NCBI GenBank assembly: GCA_964565125.1
Contig: CAZMCX010000055.1
Coordinates: 1 to 5,637 of the forward strand
Length of the DNA: 5,637 nucleotides
Direction: 5' to 3'
From: an uncultured archaeon
Lineage (GTDB): Archaea; Iainarchaeota; Iainarchaeia; Iainarchaeales; 0-14-0-20-30-16
Shown: positions 1-5,302 of the stretch, in pieces
Layout of the letters: each line of letters starts with the position of its first letter
How positions within the stretch are numbered: position 1 is the stretch's first letter
Notes under the pieces: model-generated
Database searches by the model: none
Told to the model about the DNA's origin: nothing
Seen by the model: the letters and a program-made list of their open reading frames with translations, nothing else
Made by a program: the position numbers and the translations under genes

Positions 1-30
1 AAAGTAAAATTGTTTCAGGTTCTTTCAAAT

Positions 31-36
31 GAGGTG
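31..36 (+). promoter_or_regulatory. Shine-Dalgarno site for rrp4 (GAGGTG)
   Basis: It is complementary to the conserved archaeal 16S rRNA 3' end (..GAUCACCUCC..) and lies 6 nt upstream of ATG 43. The same GGTGA-type motif recurs at 648-653, 1351-1357, 2150-2155 and 3382-3388, each before a gene start. Confidence 0.6.
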
Positions 37-42
37 TTAATT

Positions 43-648
43 ATGAAAGAAATAATTTTTCCGGGCGATATTATTAACGAAAATCTTAAACCTGGCTTTG
101 GAACATACAAAAAAGATGGAAAAGTGTATTCCAAATATTTGGGGATTTTGTATAAAGATGAAGGAATAAAAGTAATACCAATAAATGGAAAATATATTCC
201 AAAAGAAAGTGACAATATAATTGGGATTGTTTTAGAAGAAGATAATTTTGTGTATTTGTTGGACATAAATAGCTATAAACAGGGAGTTTTATTTAAGAGG
301 GCAAATAATGCAAAATTATATGATGTTTATCTGATGAGGGTAAACAGCGTAAACGAAATTAGAGATGTTGAATTAGAAGTAATTAGTAAGTTAGCAAATG
401 GGGAAGCAGTAAAAGTAAATCCCAAAAAAGTTGCAAGGCTTATCGGAAAAAATAAATCTATGCAAACTTTGATAGAAACAAAAACAAACACAAAAATCAT
501 AATTGGATTAAATGGAATTGTTTATGTAATTGGAAATGATGTGGAAAAAATAAAAGAAATAATAAAATTTATTGAAGATTACAGCCATGAAGATAATTTG
601 ACTAATAAGGTAAGTGAAATTTTAGATAAAATGAATGTTAAAAAATAA
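43..648 (+). CDS. rrp4: Exosome complex RNA-binding cap subunit Rrp4 (N-terminal domain, S1 and KH)
   Basis: The N-terminus MKEIIFPGDII...GFGTY..DGKVYSKYLGIL....IKVIPINGKYIPKESDNIIGIV matches the typical archaeal Rrp4 N-terminal/S1 pattern (M.kiV.PGD.l....G.GtY...g.vya...G.......v.VipL.G.Y.P..GD.ViG.V). The C-terminal KH-like segment is VNPKKVARLIGKNKSMQTLIETKTNTKIIIGLNGIVYV. It sits directly upstream of rrp41 and rrp42. ATG at 43 is preferred over the track's TTG at 10 because GAGGTG (31-36) lies 6 nt upstream and homologs begin at this Met. Frame 1 stays open to the window edge, so a longer N-terminus cannot be strictly excluded. Confidence 0.85.
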   Translation: MKEIIFPGDIINENLKPGFGTYKKDGKVYSKYLGILYKDEGIKVIPINGKYIPKESDNIIGIVLEEDNFVYLLDINSYKQGVLFKRANNAKLYDVYLMRVNSVNEIRDVELEVISKLANGEAVKVNPKKVARLIGKNKSMQTLIETKTNTKIIIGLNGIVYVIGNDVEKIKEIIKFIEDYSHEDNLTNKVSEILDKMNVKK

Positions 649-658
649 GGGTGTATAT

Positions 659-1357
659 ATGGTGAAGAAGAGAGTTGATGGACGAGAAATGAATGAGTTA
701 AGACCAATAAAAATAACCCCGTCAGTAGTTGAAAGGGCAGATGGATCTGCATATTTGGAGTGGGGACAAAATAAAATGATTGTGGCGGTATATGGCCCCA
801 AAGAACTGCTTCCAAAGCATTTGGCAAATTCACAAAGAGGAAAAATAAATTTTATATACAGAATGGCGCCATTTTCGGTTCCCGAAAGAAAGAATCCAAA
901 GCCAGGAAGAAGGGATATAGAAATTTCAAAAGTTGTTGGAGAAGCATTATCTTACGCAGTTTTATTGGAAGAATTCCCAGGGATGGTAATAGATGTTTAT
1001 GTTCAAATATTGGATAGTAATGCTGGAACAAGAGTTGCGGCTTTAACTGCAGCCTCTGTTGCTTTGGCTGATGCAGGAATCCCAATGAAAGATTTAGTTA
1101 CTGCTGTAGCTGTAGGGAAAGCAAATGGAAATATAATTGCGGATTTAAATAAAAATGAAGAAGATGCGGATGATGCGGTAGATATGGCATTTGCAATGCT
1201 TCCCGGTAGTGAAGAAATTGTGTTGCTTCAGGCAGATGGAATCCTAAGTGAGGATGAATTTGACAAGGCAATAAAAATAGCAAAAGAAAAATGCCAAGAA
1301 GTAAGAAAACTACAAATTGAAGCTTTAAAGTCAAAATTTAAGGCTTTAAAGGGGTGA
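659..1357 (+). CDS. rrp41: Exosome complex exonuclease Rrp41 (RNase PH domain, catalytic subunit)
   Basis: RNase PH hallmarks are present: R.DGR...ELRPIKI, ADGSAYLEWGQNKMIVAVYGP, PGRRDIEISKVV, VQILDSNAGTRVAALTAASVALADAGIPMKDLV and EEDADDAVDMAFAM...IVLLQADG. These include the phosphate-binding Arg/GTR motifs and the acidic residues expected for an active subunit. ATG 659 is preceded by AGGGTG (648-653). The track's ATG 635 would overlap rrp4 by 14 nt and has no SD. Confidence 0.9.
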   Translation: MVKKRVDGREMNELRPIKITPSVVERADGSAYLEWGQNKMIVAVYGPKELLPKHLANSQRGKINFIYRMAPFSVPERKNPKPGRRDIEISKVVGEALSYAVLLEEFPGMVIDVYVQILDSNAGTRVAALTAASVALADAGIPMKDLVTAVAVGKANGNIIADLNKNEEDADDAVDMAFAMLPGSEEIVLLQADGILSEDEFDKAIKIAKEKCQEVRKLQIEALKSKFKALKG

Positions 1358-1362
1358 TAATT

Positions 1363-2148
1363 ATGATAGACTATTCTTATGATATAGAAATGGTAAAAGG
1401 AAGAATTGAAAAAGGAATTAGGACAAATAACCGAAAAGATGATGAATACAGAGAAATAAAGATAGAAACAGGAATATTGAAAAATGCTGCAGGATCAGCA
1501 AAGGTAACTTTAGGAAAAACAATGATCTATGCTGGAACTAAATTAGAAATAGGTACCCCTTACCCAGATACTCCTGAAGAGGGTGGAATCACTGTTGGTG
1601 TAGAATTGAGCCCAATTGGTGCACCAGAGTTTTATGCAGGCCCACCAAGCGAGACTTCAATTGAATTATCAAGAGTTGTAGATAGAGGCATAAGGGAAGC
1701 AAAAACAATAGATTTCAAGAAGCTTTTGCTTGTTCCTAAGGAAAAAGCATGGTTTGTATATGTAGATATTTATGTTATGAATCATGATGGTAATTTGTTT
1801 GATGCATGCCAAATGGCGGCAATGGCGGCCTTAAAAACCACAAAAATACCAAAAATAGATAAAGAATTTAACCAAATTAAAGGGGAATACTCTGGAAATC
1901 TGAAGCTAGAAAAATTACCTGTGCTGAACACATATTCAAAGATAAGTAATAAAATAATTTTGGATCCTGATTTAAATGAAGATTATGCCACGGAAGCAAG
2001 ATTGTCTATTGCAATAGATGATAATTTGAATATCTGTGCATTACAAAAAGGCGAAAAAGGATTCTTTACTCAAGATGAATTAAAAGAAATGATAAAAACT
2101 TCAAAGAAAAAATATAAAGAAATGAGAAAAATTTTCGAAAAGTTATAA
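1363..2148 (+). CDS. rrp42: Exosome complex subunit Rrp42 (RNase PH-like, non-catalytic)
   Basis: It has a second RNase PH-fold pattern: R.DGR-like NNRKDDEYREIKIETGILKNAAGSAKVTLGKTMIYAGTKLEIGTPYPDTPEEGGITV.VELSP, SRVVDRGIRE and VDIYVMNHDGNLFDACQMAAMAALKTTKIP. Position after rrp41 is canonical. ATG 1363 lies 6 nt after GGGGTGA (1351-1357), which contains the rrp41 TGA stop. The track's GTG 1354 is inside that SD. Confidence 0.9.
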   Translation: MIDYSYDIEMVKGRIEKGIRTNNRKDDEYREIKIETGILKNAAGSAKVTLGKTMIYAGTKLEIGTPYPDTPEEGGITVGVELSPIGAPEFYAGPPSETSIELSRVVDRGIREAKTIDFKKLLLVPKEKAWFVYVDIYVMNHDGNLFDACQMAAMAALKTTKIPKIDKEFNQIKGEYSGNLKLEKLPVLNTYSKISNKIILDPDLNEDYATEARLSIAIDDNLNICALQKGEKGFFTQDELKEMIKTSKKKYKEMRKIFEKL

Positions 2149-2159
2149 AAGGTGAAAAC

Positions 2160-2531
2160 ATGACAATATCATCTGGATTTGGATCAAAATATGGACGAAA
2201 GATAAGAAAAAAATATGACAATATTGCACAAATCTACAAATTCAAAAAATTGGTTTGTCCGTTCTGTGGAATGAAGAAAGTTACTAGAGAGGCGTCAGGA
2301 ATATACGAATGCCTGTACTGTAAAAAGAAATTTGCTGGCGGAGCATATGAAGTTGAAACAAGAATCGGAAAAACAATAAAAAGTTCAATGGCAAAGAAAA
2401 ATGTTAAGGAAATGGAACTGTTTATAGAAGAAGAAACAAAAGTAGAAGAGAAAGGCGAAAAAGTAGAAAAAGCAGATAAAGCAGACAAAAAAAAGAAAGG
2501 AAAAGAGAAAGTAAAAGAGAGTGAGCAATAA
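2160..2531 (+). CDS. rpl37ae: Large-subunit ribosomal protein L37Ae/eL43 (zinc ribbon) with an unusual ~43-aa Lys/Glu-rich C-terminal tail
   Basis: The core FGSKYGRKIRKKY....(x)..CPFCG.KKV.R.ASGIYEC..C.KKFAGGAYEVET matches the eL43 signature (G.RYG..iRk.....E.......CP.CG...vkR...GIW.C..C....AGGAY...T) and has four Cys. AGGTGA (2150-2155) is 4 nt upstream of the ATG. The position after rrp42 is canonical. Confidence 0.85.
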   Translation: MTISSGFGSKYGRKIRKKYDNIAQIYKFKKLVCPFCGMKKVTREASGIYECLYCKKKFAGGAYEVETRIGKTIKSSMAKKNVKEMELFIEEETKVEEKGEKVEKADKADKKKKGKEKVKESEQ

Positions 2532-2668
2532 TGGTTGTCTATAAATGCATAAGATGTGGTGCAGAATTTGAATCATTAATAGATGGCGAAGTAAGATGCC
2601 CGCAATGCGCCTTTAGAGTTATAGAGAAAAAGAGACAAAGATTTGCAAAGTCTGTAAAAGCAATATAA
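2531..2668 (+). CDS. rpoP: DNA-directed RNA polymerase subunit P (RpoP, Rpb12 homolog), 45 aa; not in the supplied ORF track
   Basis: Manual translation gives MVVYKCIRCGAEFESLIDGEVRCPQCAFRVIEKKRQRFAKSVKAI*. It has the CxxC...CxxC zinc ribbon, the YKC.RCG start, RCP.C..R[IV]..K.R and the C-terminal VKAI typical of archaeal RpoP. The ATG overlaps the rpl37ae stop (TAATG, 2529-2533). The position between L37Ae and Brix is canonical. Confidence 0.8.
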   Translation: MVVYKCIRCGAEFESLIDGEVRCPQCAFRVIEKKRQRFAKSVKAI

Positions 2669-2705: not shown

Positions 2706-3176
2706 ATGATCAATCTGATTACAACTTCAAGAAAGCCCGGACGAAACCTACGGAAATTTGTCAGGCAGGTTTGTCCAATTTTTAACACAAAATATTTTGT
2801 TCGGGGAAAAACATCAGTAAAAGAACTTGCAGATTATTTGGAATATGAAGGCTATGACAAATTGATTGTTGTGTCAGAATTTAAAGGAAATCCTGGGTCA
2901 ATGATATTTTATACAAGTCAGAAAGGATTTTTTAAGCAAGAAAGAAAATATAAAATCACTTATTACAAACTTTCTGAAAAGAAAATGCAGTTCCCCAAAT
3001 ATGAAATAAACTTGGAAGATAAAGAAAACAAAGATTTTTTTAAGTATTTGGGAACAGAAAATGAAAAATCAGAAGCAAAGATTTTTGATGAAAAAGGAAT
3101 AATAAAAATAAAAAAAGGGAAAGATGTATATCTTAGTTTTGGGGTGTCCAGGAGCGTGGAAAAATGCCTGAAATGA
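2706..3176 (+). CDS. Brix domain protein (archaeal Imp4/Brix family, probable ribosome biogenesis factor)
   Basis: The N-terminal ITTSRKPGRNLRKFVRQV...VRGKTSVKEL......GYDKLIVVSEFKGNPGSMIFY matches the archaeal Brix pattern (iTTSR.PS.r.r.F.k.L......RGk..l.el.......g.....vv.E.kGnP..l.f). AGGA lies 5 nt upstream of the ATG. Confidence 0.8.
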   Translation: MINLITTSRKPGRNLRKFVRQVCPIFNTKYFVRGKTSVKELADYLEYEGYDKLIVVSEFKGNPGSMIFYTSQKGFFKQERKYKITYYKLSEKKMQFPKYEINLEDKENKDFFKYLGTENEKSEAKIFDEKGIIKIKKGKDVYLSFGVSRSVEKCLK

Positions 3177-3388
3177 GGATATTTATAATTGAGAATTTTA
3201 AAGATATATATAAAATAATAACTCAAGAGAAAGAGATTAATAGTAGGACAAAAACAGAATTCAACCTGAAAAAAGATGGACTAGAAATAGTAACAATTGC
3301 AAAAGATTATGTTGCTTTAAGGGCAAATATGAATTCTCTTTTGCAAAAGCTTGCATTAATAAATAATATTTATTCGGAGAAGAGGTGA
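3164..3388 (+). CDS. pcc1: KEOPS complex subunit Pcc1
   Basis: RTKTEFNLKKDGLEIVTIAKDYVALRANMNSLLQKLALINNIY aligns by eye with the archaeal Pcc1 core (....f.l.g..l.i.i.A.D..ALRa..NSyLRwi.....v). Its small size and its position between Brix and prefoldin beta are canonical. The start is ambiguous: ATG 3164 gives a 13-nt overlap with Brix, and ATG 3173 gives an ATGA stop/start overlap. Confidence 0.7.
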   Translation: MPEMRIFIIENFKDIYKIITQEKEINSRTKTEFNLKKDGLEIVTIAKDYVALRANMNSLLQKLALINNIYSEKR

Positions 3389-3392
3389 ATTT

Positions 3393-3737
3393 ATGGATCA
3401 AAGAGAGATAATGGAATTTAATAACTATAGTAACCAAATGAACATGCTTAATGCTCAGACTATGAATGTAAAAGGAATGATGGATAAAATAAAAGAAAAC
3501 ATAGACGAGTTAAATAAAAGCAAGGAAACACACGGTTATAAAAACTTAGGATTAGTTCTAATAAAGAAACCAAAAGCAGATTTAGTAAAAGAGTTGGAAG
3601 AGACCAAGAAATCCTTGGATTTAAGATTAAAAACTATTGATAAGCAAGAGAAGATTGTTTCAGCAAAATTAGAAGAACTTAAAACTAAGTTCGAGTTAGA
3701 ACAAAAGAAACAAGAAGAAAAGAAGGATAAGAAGTAA
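3393..3737 (+). CDS. pfdB: Prefoldin beta subunit
   Basis: It is a ~114-aa coiled-coil protein with the central beta-hairpin motif HGYKNLGLVLIKKPKADLVKELEETKKSLDLRLKTIDKQEKIVSAKLEEL (compare vYK.vG.lLvk..k.e...eL.ek.e.le.ri..lekqe..l...l.el). GAGGTGA (3382-3388, containing the pcc1 TGA stop) is 4 nt upstream of the ATG. Confidence 0.8.
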   Translation: MDQREIMEFNNYSNQMNMLNAQTMNVKGMMDKIKENIDELNKSKETHGYKNLGLVLIKKPKADLVKELEETKKSLDLRLKTIDKQEKIVSAKLEELKTKFELEQKKQEEKKDKK

Positions 3738-3763
3738 GGTATTTAATTCCTTACTCTATTTTT
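3733..3763 (+). terminator. Hairpin plus oligo-T, putative end of the superoperon transcript
   Basis: A 7-bp stem AGTAAGG (3733-3739) / CCTTACT (3749-3755) has a 9-nt loop, overlaps the pfdB TAA stop, and is followed by T5 (3759-3763). Archaeal termination mainly needs oligo-T tracts. This is the first break in the otherwise gap-free gene string. Confidence 0.35.
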
Positions 3764-3768
3764 ATATT

Positions 3769-4560
3769 ATGCCTAGAAAACAGCCACAAAAATTGAAACA
3801 AAAAAAACCATATGTTGCCCCCAAATGTGTAGAACTTAAAGGTGAAGATGTAAGTATCTGGCAAAGAGATCAATTGCGTATGGCGCAAGCACTTGATAGA
3901 ATGGAAATAGACCCCCCAGAAATGGTTAGAAGAATAAGGGCTCTTCTTGAGAAAAGGACAAAAAAATACCTTGGACAAAATGTAACTATTTTTGTAAAAA
4001 ATGTAACTCAAGAAGAACTTGATATAATTGCAAGATTAAGGAAAGCAGGAATACTTACAGAGATGCCTTTTGATTTTAAGTTAAAAACAGCAAACGATCG
4101 CGAGCGTGGACCTATGGGCTTTTTGAATGCAGGTAAATCTTTTGCAGAGGTGGCGATTACAGAAAAAAATAATACAAAAATAGAGGCAATGTTTATGTCT
4201 GTAGCAGACATTATAGGAAAGATGCATGCCCTGGGCATAGAACACGGGCATGTAACTACTGGTAATGTTCACCTGCATAAAGGGAGACTGTGTTTAACAG
4301 ATTTTTCAATGGCAGAACAAAAAGTAGTGGATTGGAATTCTATGCAAAGTATATATAATGCCTTTGTAAGAGATTATGCTACAAGAATATTACGGAGTAA
4401 AGGCGGGGCAAATATGGCGTTTTGTAAAGAATTTTTTAGACGGATAATTTCTTACTATCCAGCCCCGGAGACAGTTAAACAAAAGTTGATTGAAAAGCTT
4501 AATAGAGATTTACTAAATTATAGGTATTATGATATTAACCCTTATCACGGGCCTTGTTAA
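3769..4560 (+). CDS. Divergent Bud32/RIO-like small protein-kinase-fold protein with a His-substituted catalytic loop (possible KEOPS Bud32 variant or pseudokinase)
   Basis: It is a long ORF with non-low-complexity composition. MHALGIEHGHVTTGNVHL-HKGRLCLTDFSMAEQKVVDW resembles the Bud32 C-lobe (lH..giiHGDLTTSNiil..g.l..IDFGL.e....EdkaVDL). ELKGEDVSIW resembles the Bud32 RGAEA.iY glycine-loop region. TIFVK resembles the VAIK lysine strand, and EELDIIARLRKAGILTEMPF resembles the alphaC/REA.ll..a..aGV.vP region. No SD precedes ATG 3769, so the start is uncertain. Confidence here refers to the functional assignment; that this is a real CDS is about 0.8. Confidence 0.5.
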   Translation: MPRKQPQKLKQKKPYVAPKCVELKGEDVSIWQRDQLRMAQALDRMEIDPPEMVRRIRALLEKRTKKYLGQNVTIFVKNVTQEELDIIARLRKAGILTEMPFDFKLKTANDRERGPMGFLNAGKSFAEVAITEKNNTKIEAMFMSVADIIGKMHALGIEHGHVTTGNVHLHKGRLCLTDFSMAEQKVVDWNSMQSIYNAFVRDYATRILRSKGGANMAFCKEFFRRIISYYPAPETVKQKLIEKLNRDLLNYRYYDINPYHGPC

Positions 4561-4561
4561 C

Positions 4562-5302
4562 TTATATTTTTATTTCTGTTTTTTTACAGTTATCTAGAAT
4601 GATTAGAGTTGTATTCTTTAATTTCTCAGAAGATCTTTCTTTAAGTTTATCCATGTTTGTTTTTATCAGGGAAAATGTGTTATAGTGCATTGGAATTACA
4701 ACTTTTGGCTCTGTTTTTCTTGCAAAGGCAACAAACTCAAAAATGTCCATTGTGAAAACCCCCCCGCAGGGAAGGATGGCAATATCTACTTTTACATCTA
4801 TGTTTTGGTCGTAAGTGTCACCCGCAAAATAGATTTCTTTTTCGTGATATTTTAACAAAAAACCAACACTATATTGGGATTGTGGGTGCTGTGCTGGAAC
4901 TACTGTAACGTCAATGTTTGCAACTTTTATTTTGTCATCTATTTTTATAGTTCTTTTTTGTGAATTTTCTATGTCTAATTGATTTATTACTAATGATGGT
5001 GCAATAATTGGACAGTTATCTCTTTTTGCCAAAAACTCAACCGCATCTTTGTCAAAATGATCAAAATGTTCATGTGTAATAAAGATTGCGTCTAATTTTG
5101 GAATATTTTCTTTTGTTATTTCAAGTTTTTCTGTTGCCTCAAAATTTTCTGGGGCATTGCTTCCAAAGAATGGATCAAAAAGAATTGTTTTGTCAAAGAA
5201 GTTAATTAGAAAAAAACTATGCCAATATTTTGTGATGTAAATCTTATCTTGTGTGCATTCTTCTATTTTTTTAAACATTAACTTTTTTAGAAGTTGAACC
5301 AT
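4562..5302 (-). CDS. MBL-fold (metallo-beta-lactamase superfamily) metal-dependent hydrolase
   Basis: It carries the HxHxDH motif (FITHEHFDHFD) and, in correct order and spacing, the downstream His (VPAQHP), the bridging Asp (YFAGDT) and the terminal His (VIPMHYNTF). The N-terminal beta strand ...ITKYWHSFFLINFFDKTILFDPFFG resembles small UPF0173/YtkL-like hydrolases. The start could instead be the internal Met at 5278. Confidence 0.85.
   Translation of the reverse strand: MVQLLKKLMFKKIEECTQDKIYITKYWHSFFLINFFDKTILFDPFFGSNAPENFEATEKLEITKENIPKLDAIFITHEHFDHFDKDAVEFLAKRDNCPIIAPSLVINQLDIENSQKRTIKIDDKIKVANIDVTVVPAQHPQSQYSVGFLLKYHEKEIYFAGDTYDQNIDVKVDIAILPCGGVFTMDIFEFVAFARKTEPKVVIPMHYNTFSLIKTNMDKLKERSSEKLKNTTLIILDNCKKTEIKI
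4567..4585 (+). terminator. Oligo-T tracts (T5 at 4567-4571, T7 at 4579-4585) just downstream of the 3769-4560 ORF
   Basis: These are the first T-runs after the TAA stop at 4558-4560. They lie inside the 3' coding end of the convergent minus-strand gene, where they encode Lys. This is a typical archaeal intrinsic termination signal, but such tracts are also common by chance in AT-rich DNA. Confidence 0.3.

Follow-up and report, generated by a model that had tools for sequence, protein, structure and literature searches.

An open reading frame (ORF) located downstream of the exosome superoperon of an uncultured archaeon of the phylum Iainarchaeota probably encodes a member of a previously uncatalogued protein family that shares ancestry with Bud32 yet is separate from it, is found in Iainarchaeota/Diapherotrites in multiple copies, likely depends on Mg-nucleotide, and does not provide the Bud32 subunit of KEOPS. 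The ORF lies on contig CAZMCX010000055.1 (GenBank assembly GCA_964565125.1), whose analyzed stretch of 5,637 nucleotides is called the window below. A sequence-only reading of the window had described the product as a Bud32-like kinase-fold protein with the catalytic Asp replaced by His. The elements that can be read directly from the sequence are as it described them: the loop H159-G-H161-V-T-T-G-N166, the codon CAT of His161 at 4249-4251, D178-F-S, K77 at 3997-3999, and the basic N-terminus MPRKQPQKLKQKKP; the basic C-terminal tail is indeed absent, the protein ending in ...PYHGPC.

The ORF is a real gene under purifying selection. Orthologs (together with the window gene, the window clade) were found in independent assemblies at 96, 71, 58 and 51% identity; the reading frame is intact, and the ratios of the rates of non-synonymous to synonymous substitutions (dN/dS), calculated pairwise for the window gene and the four orthologs, range from 0.15 to 0.35. 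Position 161 is His in 5/5 orthologs, encoded by CAT in four and by the synonymous CAC in one, which bears out the conservation of His at the position of the catalytic Asp. The probability that we deal with an artifact, be it a sequencing error in codon 161 or a bud32 pseudogene in decay, is negligible: His161 recurs in five independent assemblies, once with a different codon, selection on the intact frame is stabilizing, and His is the family consensus at this position. Nor is His161 a single transversion in a Bud32 gene: in a large separate family, 77 of the 91 members that were aligned have His at this position.

The suggestion that the ORF is less AT-biased than its neighbors and has a separate history was not upheld. 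Its GC content is 0.357, compared with 0.372 for rrp41, and its GC content at third codon positions (GC3), 0.258, lies within the range of the neighboring genes (0.216-0.330), which rules out a foreign origin by composition. A role in anti-phage defense was considered and rejected as well, PADLOC matches being at the noise level only. One more sequence similar to the window protein (proteins and loci are numbered P and L, respectively) is P0004, 175 residues long and encoded on a 789-bp contig from ENA: its first ~107 residues are 100% identical to the window protein, and the remainder is a ribosomal protein L11-like sequence (PF00298). It is most likely an assembly chimera.

Fold and family relationships

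Four comparisons agree, well beyond chance, with a Bud32-like kinase fold. The top seven NCBIfam matches are all Bud32 models, the best one being TIGR03724 (E = 3e-10, 39.8 bits, cutoff 125); PRK14879 models score 20-32 bits versus cutoffs of 174-372. In Pfam, the window protein matches Kdo (PF06293) with 25.8 bits versus a cutoff of 21.3 over residues 81-186 and has no match to RIO1; the NCBIfam Rio1 model gives 14.3 bits (cutoff 480). Alignment of the family profile with that of 14 canonical Bud32 proteins by hhalign has a probability of 99.5% and an E-value of 7.7e-23 over 156 columns; it extends from alphaC to the end of the C-lobe and leaves Bud32 columns 1-46, with the GAEA loop and the beta3 Lys, unaligned. 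The top Foldseek matches of the structural model in PDB, given with their template modeling (TM) scores, are WaaP (6dfl_A, TM 0.55), Arabidopsis thaliana Bud32 (8k20_B, 0.56) and PRPK (6wqx_C, 0.54), compared with 0.25-0.40 for ordinary protein kinases. Judged from the profiles and the model, the window protein is a small atypical kinase fold homologous to Bud32. Bud32 appears to be the closest relative on the basis of the NCBIfam ranking and the coverage of the PDB-sequence match, the profile-profile comparison having covered Bud32 only.

A sugar or small-molecule kinase of the Kdo/WaaP/InaA type would agree with the PF06293 score just above the cutoff, with WaaP being the best Foldseek match by E-value (TM 0.51-0.55 for the WaaP-type structures) and with the name given by NCBI to an ortholog, "lipopolysaccharide kinase InaA family protein". 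We nevertheless regard it as very unlikely. Canonical Bud32 also matches PF06293, so this match does not discriminate; the KdkA and InaA models of NCBIfam yield 14.4 and 12.4 bits against cutoffs of 142 and 235, respectively; the catalytic-Asp position is occupied by His; and a sugar or lipid biosynthesis gene is not a consistent neighbor at the fetched loci. To our knowledge, archaea have no lipopolysaccharide (LPS).

The size of the family became apparent in an exhaustive hidden Markov model (HMM) search of 1.84 billion cluster representatives, which yielded 158 matches at E <= 1e-3; a word-seeded search found few relatives only. The family comprises roughly 100 or more clusters at 50% identity. 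Most matches are 200-300 residues long and have the loop H-G-H-P-H-x-x-N followed by (I/L)-D-F-(K/S), the family proteins being ~210-280 residues long; canonical Bud32 (HGDLTTSN ... IDFG) appears among the profile matches only at E-values of 1e-7 to 1e-4. Pfam and NCBIfam contain no model for the family, and individual members have weak matches to Kdo, RIO1, APH, ABC1 (for example, P0056) or Pkinase, or none. A Bud32 HMM of our own separates the groups cleanly: scores are 200-296 bits for true Bud32 proteins, 56-67 bits in the window clade (63.7 for the window protein) and at most 47 bits for other members.

Conservation was counted in an alignment of 91 family sequences. D178 is invariant (91/91), followed by N166 (89/91), G122 (87/91), H159, F199, D202 and Y230 (86/91 each), H153 and W189 (85/91 each), F179 (83/91), Y203 and K237 (75/91 each) and P231 (72/91). 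Position 161 is His in 77 sequences, Asp in eight and Asn in three; at position 163, 69 sequences have His and nine have Thr; and at position 180, 53 have Lys and 20 have Ser. The window protein has the family set H153, H159, H161, N166, D178-F179, W189, F199, D202-Y203, Y230-P231 and K237 as well as the P18 motif, and deviates from the consensus in having Val for P162, Thr for H163 and Ser for K180, these differences being common to the window clade. The hallmarks of the family are H-G-H-(P)-(H)-x-x-N replacing H-G-D-L-T-T-S-N, DF(K/S) replacing DFG, a beta3 Lys that is usually Arg, the absence of the GAEA loop and the RGRY tail, and two new motifs, the N-terminal (K/R)KPYxKP and the C-terminal YP...K.

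The names of the source organisms, "Candidatus ainarchaeum sp.", "Candidatus Diapherotrites archaeon" or plain "archaeon", point to the DPANN phylum Iainarchaeota. Among GTDB species representatives, the window-clade gene was found only in the metagenome-assembled genome (MAG) STB_43 (GCA_028710695.1), and the metagenome scan yielded seven loci. The source labels of members vary: P0030 is called "tRNA A-37 threonylcarbamoyl transferase component Bud32" by JGI, and the other labels among P0030, P0043, P0002 and P0013 are "serine/threonine protein kinase" (JGI), "lipopolysaccharide kinase InaA family protein" (NCBI) and "hypothetical protein".

In a neighbor-joining (NJ) tree rooted on Bud32, Bud32 is monophyletic in 100/100 bootstrap replicates, while the window clade is nested in the family, sister to group B (P0006-P0010) in 84/100 replicates and never together with Bud32. 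The Asp-retaining members P0070, P0085, P0115, P0016 and P0098 branch first in the family, a placement without a bootstrap test. The combination of K77, D161 and E180 is found in three of the eight Asp-type members of the alignment; among the His-type members, R77, H161 and K180 is the most frequent pattern; and the window clade with K77, H161, T163 and S180 is intermediate. This K/D/E to R/H/K covariation would shift the active site towards positive charge, and the fact that these positions change together looks like coordinated remodeling, not decay. The Thr-Thr pair of the loop, earlier taken for a signature of Bud32, is not clearly inherited from it: the window clade is nested, the Asp-retaining members branch first and the active site is remodeled, so the pair need not be an ancestral feature.

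The family is paralogous and occupies several different genomic contexts. MAG GCA_028710695.1 encodes two members, P0002 and P0011; the latter has the loop HGHPHFQN and lies on a separate contig, flanked by genes of giant surface proteins. Group B has a conserved locus flanked by UbiA and TyrRS and, at the opposite end, by RadA, where a tandem pair of members is found in one population (L005-L008). Other members lie beside unrelated genes, and P0013 and P0043 have no partners in common with the window clade. The neighbors are often related to translation or RNA (the exosome superoperon, TyrRS, GatE), and no gene is a consistent partner across the fetched loci. Placement after pcc1 and prefoldin beta is confined to the window clade. 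With its loop HGH-V/A-T, this clade would represent a single group of orthologs whose position at the 3' end of the exosome/pcc1/prefoldin-beta superoperon became fixed.

Predicted structure and the putative active site

The AlphaFold2 model based on an alignment of 70 family sequences has a predicted local distance difference test score (pLDDT) of 94.4 and a predicted TM score of 0.88; it supersedes a first model from eight sequences (pLDDT 66.6), in which the N-lobe was too poor. The N-terminal tail is modeled as an ordered coil (pLDDT 74-91), and P18 of its motif is present in 74 of the 75 non-gap family sequences. A short beta1 around residues 26-28 is followed by the helices 30-33, 35-47 and 50-61. 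An insertion of ~38 residues had been proposed to precede the strand of K77; the model retains the insertion as these three helices and shortens it to about 30 residues (33-62). Its columns are gapped in 40-86 of the 91 family sequences, and the insertion is clade-specific, most family members being without it. In the hairpin that comes next, beta2 comprises residues 65-68 and beta3 residues 73-80, and the latter carries K77, in agreement with its earlier assignment; alphaC carries E82/E83. This segment (65-92) was paired by hhalign with IRKxRTxxEA of Bud32. Family-wide, position 77 is Arg in 44 members and Lys in 18. G122 is situated in the hinge.

Further along the alignment, His161 takes the position of the catalytic Asp, and N166 is the counterpart of the Asn that serves as an Mg ligand in kinases. 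The segment EQKVVDW does not correspond to EDKxVDL of Bud32, as had been thought: the profile-profile alignment pairs EDKAVDL with N197-Y203 (NAFVRDY), not with E183-W189, and assigns VDW to the 8-residue family-specific insertion. D202 is paired with the Asp of VDL, and D202-Y203 lie on an alphaF-like helix of the model. The last two helices (216-227 and 234-254) are additional, C-terminal ones. In the tail, Y259, G261, P262 and C263 are invariant within the window clade, G261 also being present in 27/27 non-gap sequences family-wide.

The near-invariance of N166 and D178 together with the coordinated change of the active site suggests that Mg-nucleotide binding is most likely kept. The protein is thus probably an ATP-dependent enzyme or switch with a remodeled active site, in which His161 would replace the catalytic Asp as a general base or a phosphate ligand, and H163 and K180, present in most members, could add positive charge at the gamma-phosphate site. 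The three loop histidines are strongly constrained in the family alignment. A partner may be docked by the conserved peptides at the two termini.

KEOPS, pseudokinase and other interpretations

Several observations weigh against a distinct family of nucleotide-dependent proteins. The first group would favor KEOPS: by the Bud32 HMM, no other part of the family is as similar to Bud32 as the window clade; at all loci that extend far enough (the window, L001/L002 and L003), only prefoldin beta lies between its gene and pcc1; and canonical Bud32 and Kae1 of the same organisms were not found in the search, which covered the fetched loci and the names of the matches. The NJ tree is crude and has long branches, and the taxonomy is that of five named proteins, all organism-named members coming from Iainarchaeota/Diapherotrites. 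Finally, the glycine-rich loop is missing, with the three modeled helices in its place in the window clade, and neither the beta3 Lys nor the alphaC Glu is conserved family-wide in the 91-sequence alignment, so that ATP binding could be lost.

In spite of the first group, the window protein is, by its sequence features, most likely not the KEOPS Bud32 subunit. In archaeal KEOPS, the Asp451Ala mutant is kinase-dead and forms no N6-threonylcarbamoyladenosine (t6A), and t6A formation also requires Arg530, the invariant Arg by which the C-terminal tail reaches Kae1 and the tRNA (PMC11621456). In our set of 14 canonical Bud32 proteins, the loop Asp and R207-G208-R209 of the tail are invariant. The window protein has neither the catalytic Asp nor the tail Arg.

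It is therefore quite unlikely that the window protein is the only Bud32 of its genome, a remodeled KEOPS ATPase that acts with Kae1, Pcc1 and Cgi121 in t6A synthesis and of which other family members are paralogous offshoots. For this interpretation one could add that the window clade keeps K77, E82/E83, T163, N166 and D178, and that the JGI pipeline named P0030 Bud32. However, the GAEA loop is absent, with the first 46 columns of the Bud32 profile unaligned, the TIGR03724 score is far below the cutoff, and the tree never groups the window clade with Bud32. The Bud32 of a woesearchaeote, also a member of DPANN, scores 248 bits with the Bud32 HMM (P0121), and hence the low scores of the window clade are not accounted for by DPANN divergence alone. 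Besides, the gene appears to have its own promoter (see below).

The surroundings of the family genes do not support KEOPS either. Kae1 is adjacent at none of the fetched loci: no kae1/TsaD gene lies within ±10 kb in L001, L003, L005-L009, L011, L013 and L025, and when all fetched loci were searched by tblastn with Bud32 and TsaD, family genes only were retrieved. Bud32 genes are usually, though not necessarily, fused or adjacent to kae1; in L023/L024, canonical bud32 and kae1 overlap, the contigs L022-L024 coming from other samples. Among the canonical Bud32 matches, P0121 is the only one with a DPANN name, with none from Iainarchaeota, and the supplements of published KEOPS studies list Pcc1 for Diapherotrites and have no Bud32 entry for them. 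Fusion of a family member with Kae1 was considered and rejected, the TsaD domain being absent from the longer matches P0126, P0152, P0049, P0154, P0135, P0153 and P0144. Of the three options offered by the sequence-only reading, namely a remodeled KEOPS ATPase, a pseudokinase scaffold and a new family derived from Bud32, the last one fits best, and the first is unlikely because every Bud32-specific functional feature tested is missing.

The second option deserves more weight. By the sequence definition, pseudokinases are kinase folds that lack at least one of three residues, namely the Lys of beta3, the Asp of HRD and the Asp of DFG; the window protein has K77 and D178, and with His161 in place of the HRD-type Asp it would be classed with them. 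It might be catalytically dead and act only as a binding scaffold or an allosteric partner, with the conserved terminal peptide motifs as docking elements, and the missing glycine-rich loop and the poor conservation of the beta3 Lys and the alphaC Glu agree with that. We consider this a serious but less likely alternative, since conservation in the family is highest at N166, D178, H159, H161 and H163, which is unusual for a dead site, and since the K/D/E to R/H/K change is coordinated and does not resemble drift.

An active offshoot of Bud32 with new chemistry is also conceivable, if unlikely: His161 might be a general base or phospho-acceptor, or the three loop histidines with N166 and D178 might hold a transition metal, and the window clade might serve the exosome, KEOPS or the ribosome-biogenesis machinery, in the extreme case as a replacement of Bud32 in a remodeled KEOPS of Iainarchaeota.

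Genomic setting and comparison with known systems

The window contains an archaeal exosome superoperon on the plus strand, the Bud32-related gene downstream of it and a convergent gene on the minus strand as the last one (Table 1). As stated previously, pcc1 is located two genes upstream with prefoldin beta in between; this is confirmed by coordinates, Pfam and NCBIfam. The order pcc1, prefoldin beta, Bud32-related gene, convergent MBL-fold hydrolase is also found in L001/L002 and L003. L016 begins just upstream of the Bud32-related gene and continues with the MBL-fold hydrolase and S19e, while L001/L002 run on into S19e, L39e, L31e and eIF6. The hydrolase is thus a conserved neighbor of the orthologs in L001, L003 and L016.

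Table 1. Genes of the window, segments of the Bud32-related gene and related features at other loci.
Feature	Positions	Strand	Remark or basis
rrp4	10-648	+	
rrp41	635-1357	+	
rrp42	1354-2148	+	
L37Ae	2160-2531	+	
rpoP	2531-2668	+	
Putative Brix/Imp4-like rRNA-maturation gene	2706-3176	+	
pcc1	3164-3388	+	Superoperon end; Pfam and NCBIfam
Prefoldin beta	3393-3737	+	Last gene of the superoperon; Pfam and NCBIfam
Upstream element GTAAGG-tatttaatt-CCTTAC-tctatttttatatt	3734-3768	+	Conserved; ortholog comparison
Bud32-related ORF	3769-4560	+	Complete, 263 residues plus stop codon
Basic N-terminal tail, motif (K/R)(K/R)-P-Y-x-x-P-K	3769-3828	+	Family alignment; model
Three-helix insertion, residues 30-61, at the expected glycine-rich loop	3856-3951	+	Model; alignment
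beta2-beta3 hairpin (65-80), then alphaC (81-92)	3961-4044	+	Model
Catalytic loop H159-G-H161-V-T163-T-G-N166	4243-4266	+	Alignment
D178-F-S, counterpart of DFG	4300-4308	+	D178 at the position of the kinase Mg-ligand Asp
8-residue family-specific insertion with W189, then F199-x-x-D202-Y203	4321-4377	+	Alignment
C-lobe motif Y230-P231 ... K237, in and between the last two helices	4456-4479	+	Alignment; model
C-terminal tail Y259-H-G-P-C263	4543-4557	+	Unlike the basic RGRY tail of Bud32
MBL-fold metal-dependent hydrolase	4562-5302	-	Convergent; Pfam and NCBIfam
Upstream element in L001	~9966-10000		
Upstream element in L003	~2748-2782		
Upstream element in L015 and L016			
P0009 gene in L005	6558-7358		
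P0009 gene in L006	3480-4280		
P0009 gene in L007	6036-6836		
P0009 gene in L008	6065-6865		

Directly 5' of the ATG of the Bud32-related gene lies a 35-nucleotide element that overlaps the stop codon of prefoldin beta (3735-3737). It consists of a 6-bp stem GTAAGG/CCTTAC, a TATA-like loop (TATTTAAT) centered ~25 nucleotides before the ATG, and a T-rich run, and is almost identical in the window, L015, L001, L003 and L016, orthologs whose identity at the protein level is only 51-71%. We infer that the element may be the gene's own promoter for a leaderless mRNA, a terminator of the upstream operon, or both: a TATA-like loop at this distance fits an archaeal promoter of leaderless mRNA, and a hairpin with a T-run could terminate transcription of the operon. 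A structured RNA was considered and rejected, since neither the window nor the element has an Rfam match and the hairpin is thermodynamically unremarkable (z = -0.95).

The genes of the window are packed very tightly. Overlaps are found between rrp4 and rrp41 (14 nucleotides), rrp41 and rrp42 (4), L37Ae and rpoP (1) and the Brix/Imp4-like gene and pcc1 (13), and a single base separates the stop codons of the Bud32-related gene and the MBL-fold hydrolase. L37Ae has a Lys/Glu-rich C-terminal extension of ~45 residues (...EEETKVEEKGEKVEKADKADKKKKGKEKVKESEQ) past the Pfam domain (residues 4-79). For the gene that separates rpoP from pcc1, Pfam yields no matches, and its score is 61 bits versus a cutoff of 171 with the NCBIfam "rRNA maturation protein" (Brix/Imp4-like) models; by this score it is presumably a very divergent Brix/Imp4-like copy.

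Some members at other loci have peculiarities of their own. P0009, the product of the second gene of the tandem pair, has the loop HGNLTFKN and DFA, and its gene contains an in-frame TAG after the N-terminal 50 codons (...VPDKDER*RDLAKRFLKKDTKK...), identical in four contigs from four metagenomes; either a nonsense mutation has become fixed or the gene is split, or else the stop is recoded or read through. Two distant family members suggest operons: in L013 (533-1911), the P0013 gene overlaps the stop codon of an upstream gene of a HAD-family hydrolase/phosphatase, and the P0043 gene (JGI 3300072015) that of an upstream GatE gene.

Bud32 belongs to the small number of kinase-fold proteins that go back to the common ancestor of archaea and eukaryotes, and there is still debate about the way in which its ATPase activity drives t6A synthesis. 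A lineage-specific radiation of Bud32 relatives, in which Asp is replaced by His and the metal ligands are kept, would be a natural experiment on the minimal kinase fold and would extend the list of "pseudokinases" possibly carrying other activities. In annotation, the labels "LPS kinase InaA family", "Ser/Thr kinase" and "Bud32" could create false KEOPS calls in DPANN genomes. For now, the significance is limited by the narrow taxonomic range and by a function that is predicted from sequence.

Among known systems, Bud32/PRPK (TP53RK; TIGR03724; PDB 3EN9, 8UNK, 4WW5, 6WQX, 8K20), the atypical kinase/ATPase of KEOPS that binds Kae1 and Cgi121 and whose ATPase activity tRNA stimulates, shares with the window protein a small two-lobed kinase fold without an activation segment, the spacing H-G-x-x-T-x-x-N, the DF motif, the alphaF Asp (D202), a length of ~200-260 residues and a gene near pcc1. 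Unlike Bud32, the window protein has His for the catalytic Asp, lacks the GAEA loop, the KxRxxKxYR...RTxxEA insert and the RGRY tail, and is neither fused nor adjacent to kae1; on the other hand, it has the N-terminal KPY motif, the helical insert, the 8-residue insert with W189 and the YP...K motif, and its family is multi-copy whereas Bud32 is single-copy. Kinases of the Kdo/WaaP/InaA type (PF06293; PDB 6DFL) have a compact kinase fold and are an equally good structural match, but WaaP keeps the catalytic Asp and its substrate is the core sugars of bacterial LPS.

RIO kinases (PF01163) are archaeal atypical kinases thought to be related to Bud32, and the site of the window gene beside ribosome-biogenesis genes recalls their function; in contrast to them, the window protein has no RIO flexible loop or winged-helix domain, and its catalytic Asp is replaced. 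Kinase folds with a non-Asp base or a new use are represented by the SelO-type "pseudokinases", by PI3K/PIKK with the loop D-x-H-x-x-N, and by APH and UbiB with HxDxHxxN. We know of none among SelO, PI3K, APH and UbiB that has His at the base position together with H-x-H-x-H, and they are not known to have a specific sequence relationship with the window protein. What they have in common with it is that the metal-ligand Asn and the DFG Asp are kept while the canonical base is changed, and H163 of the family, two residues past the base position, recalls the loops of APH, UbiB and PI3K.

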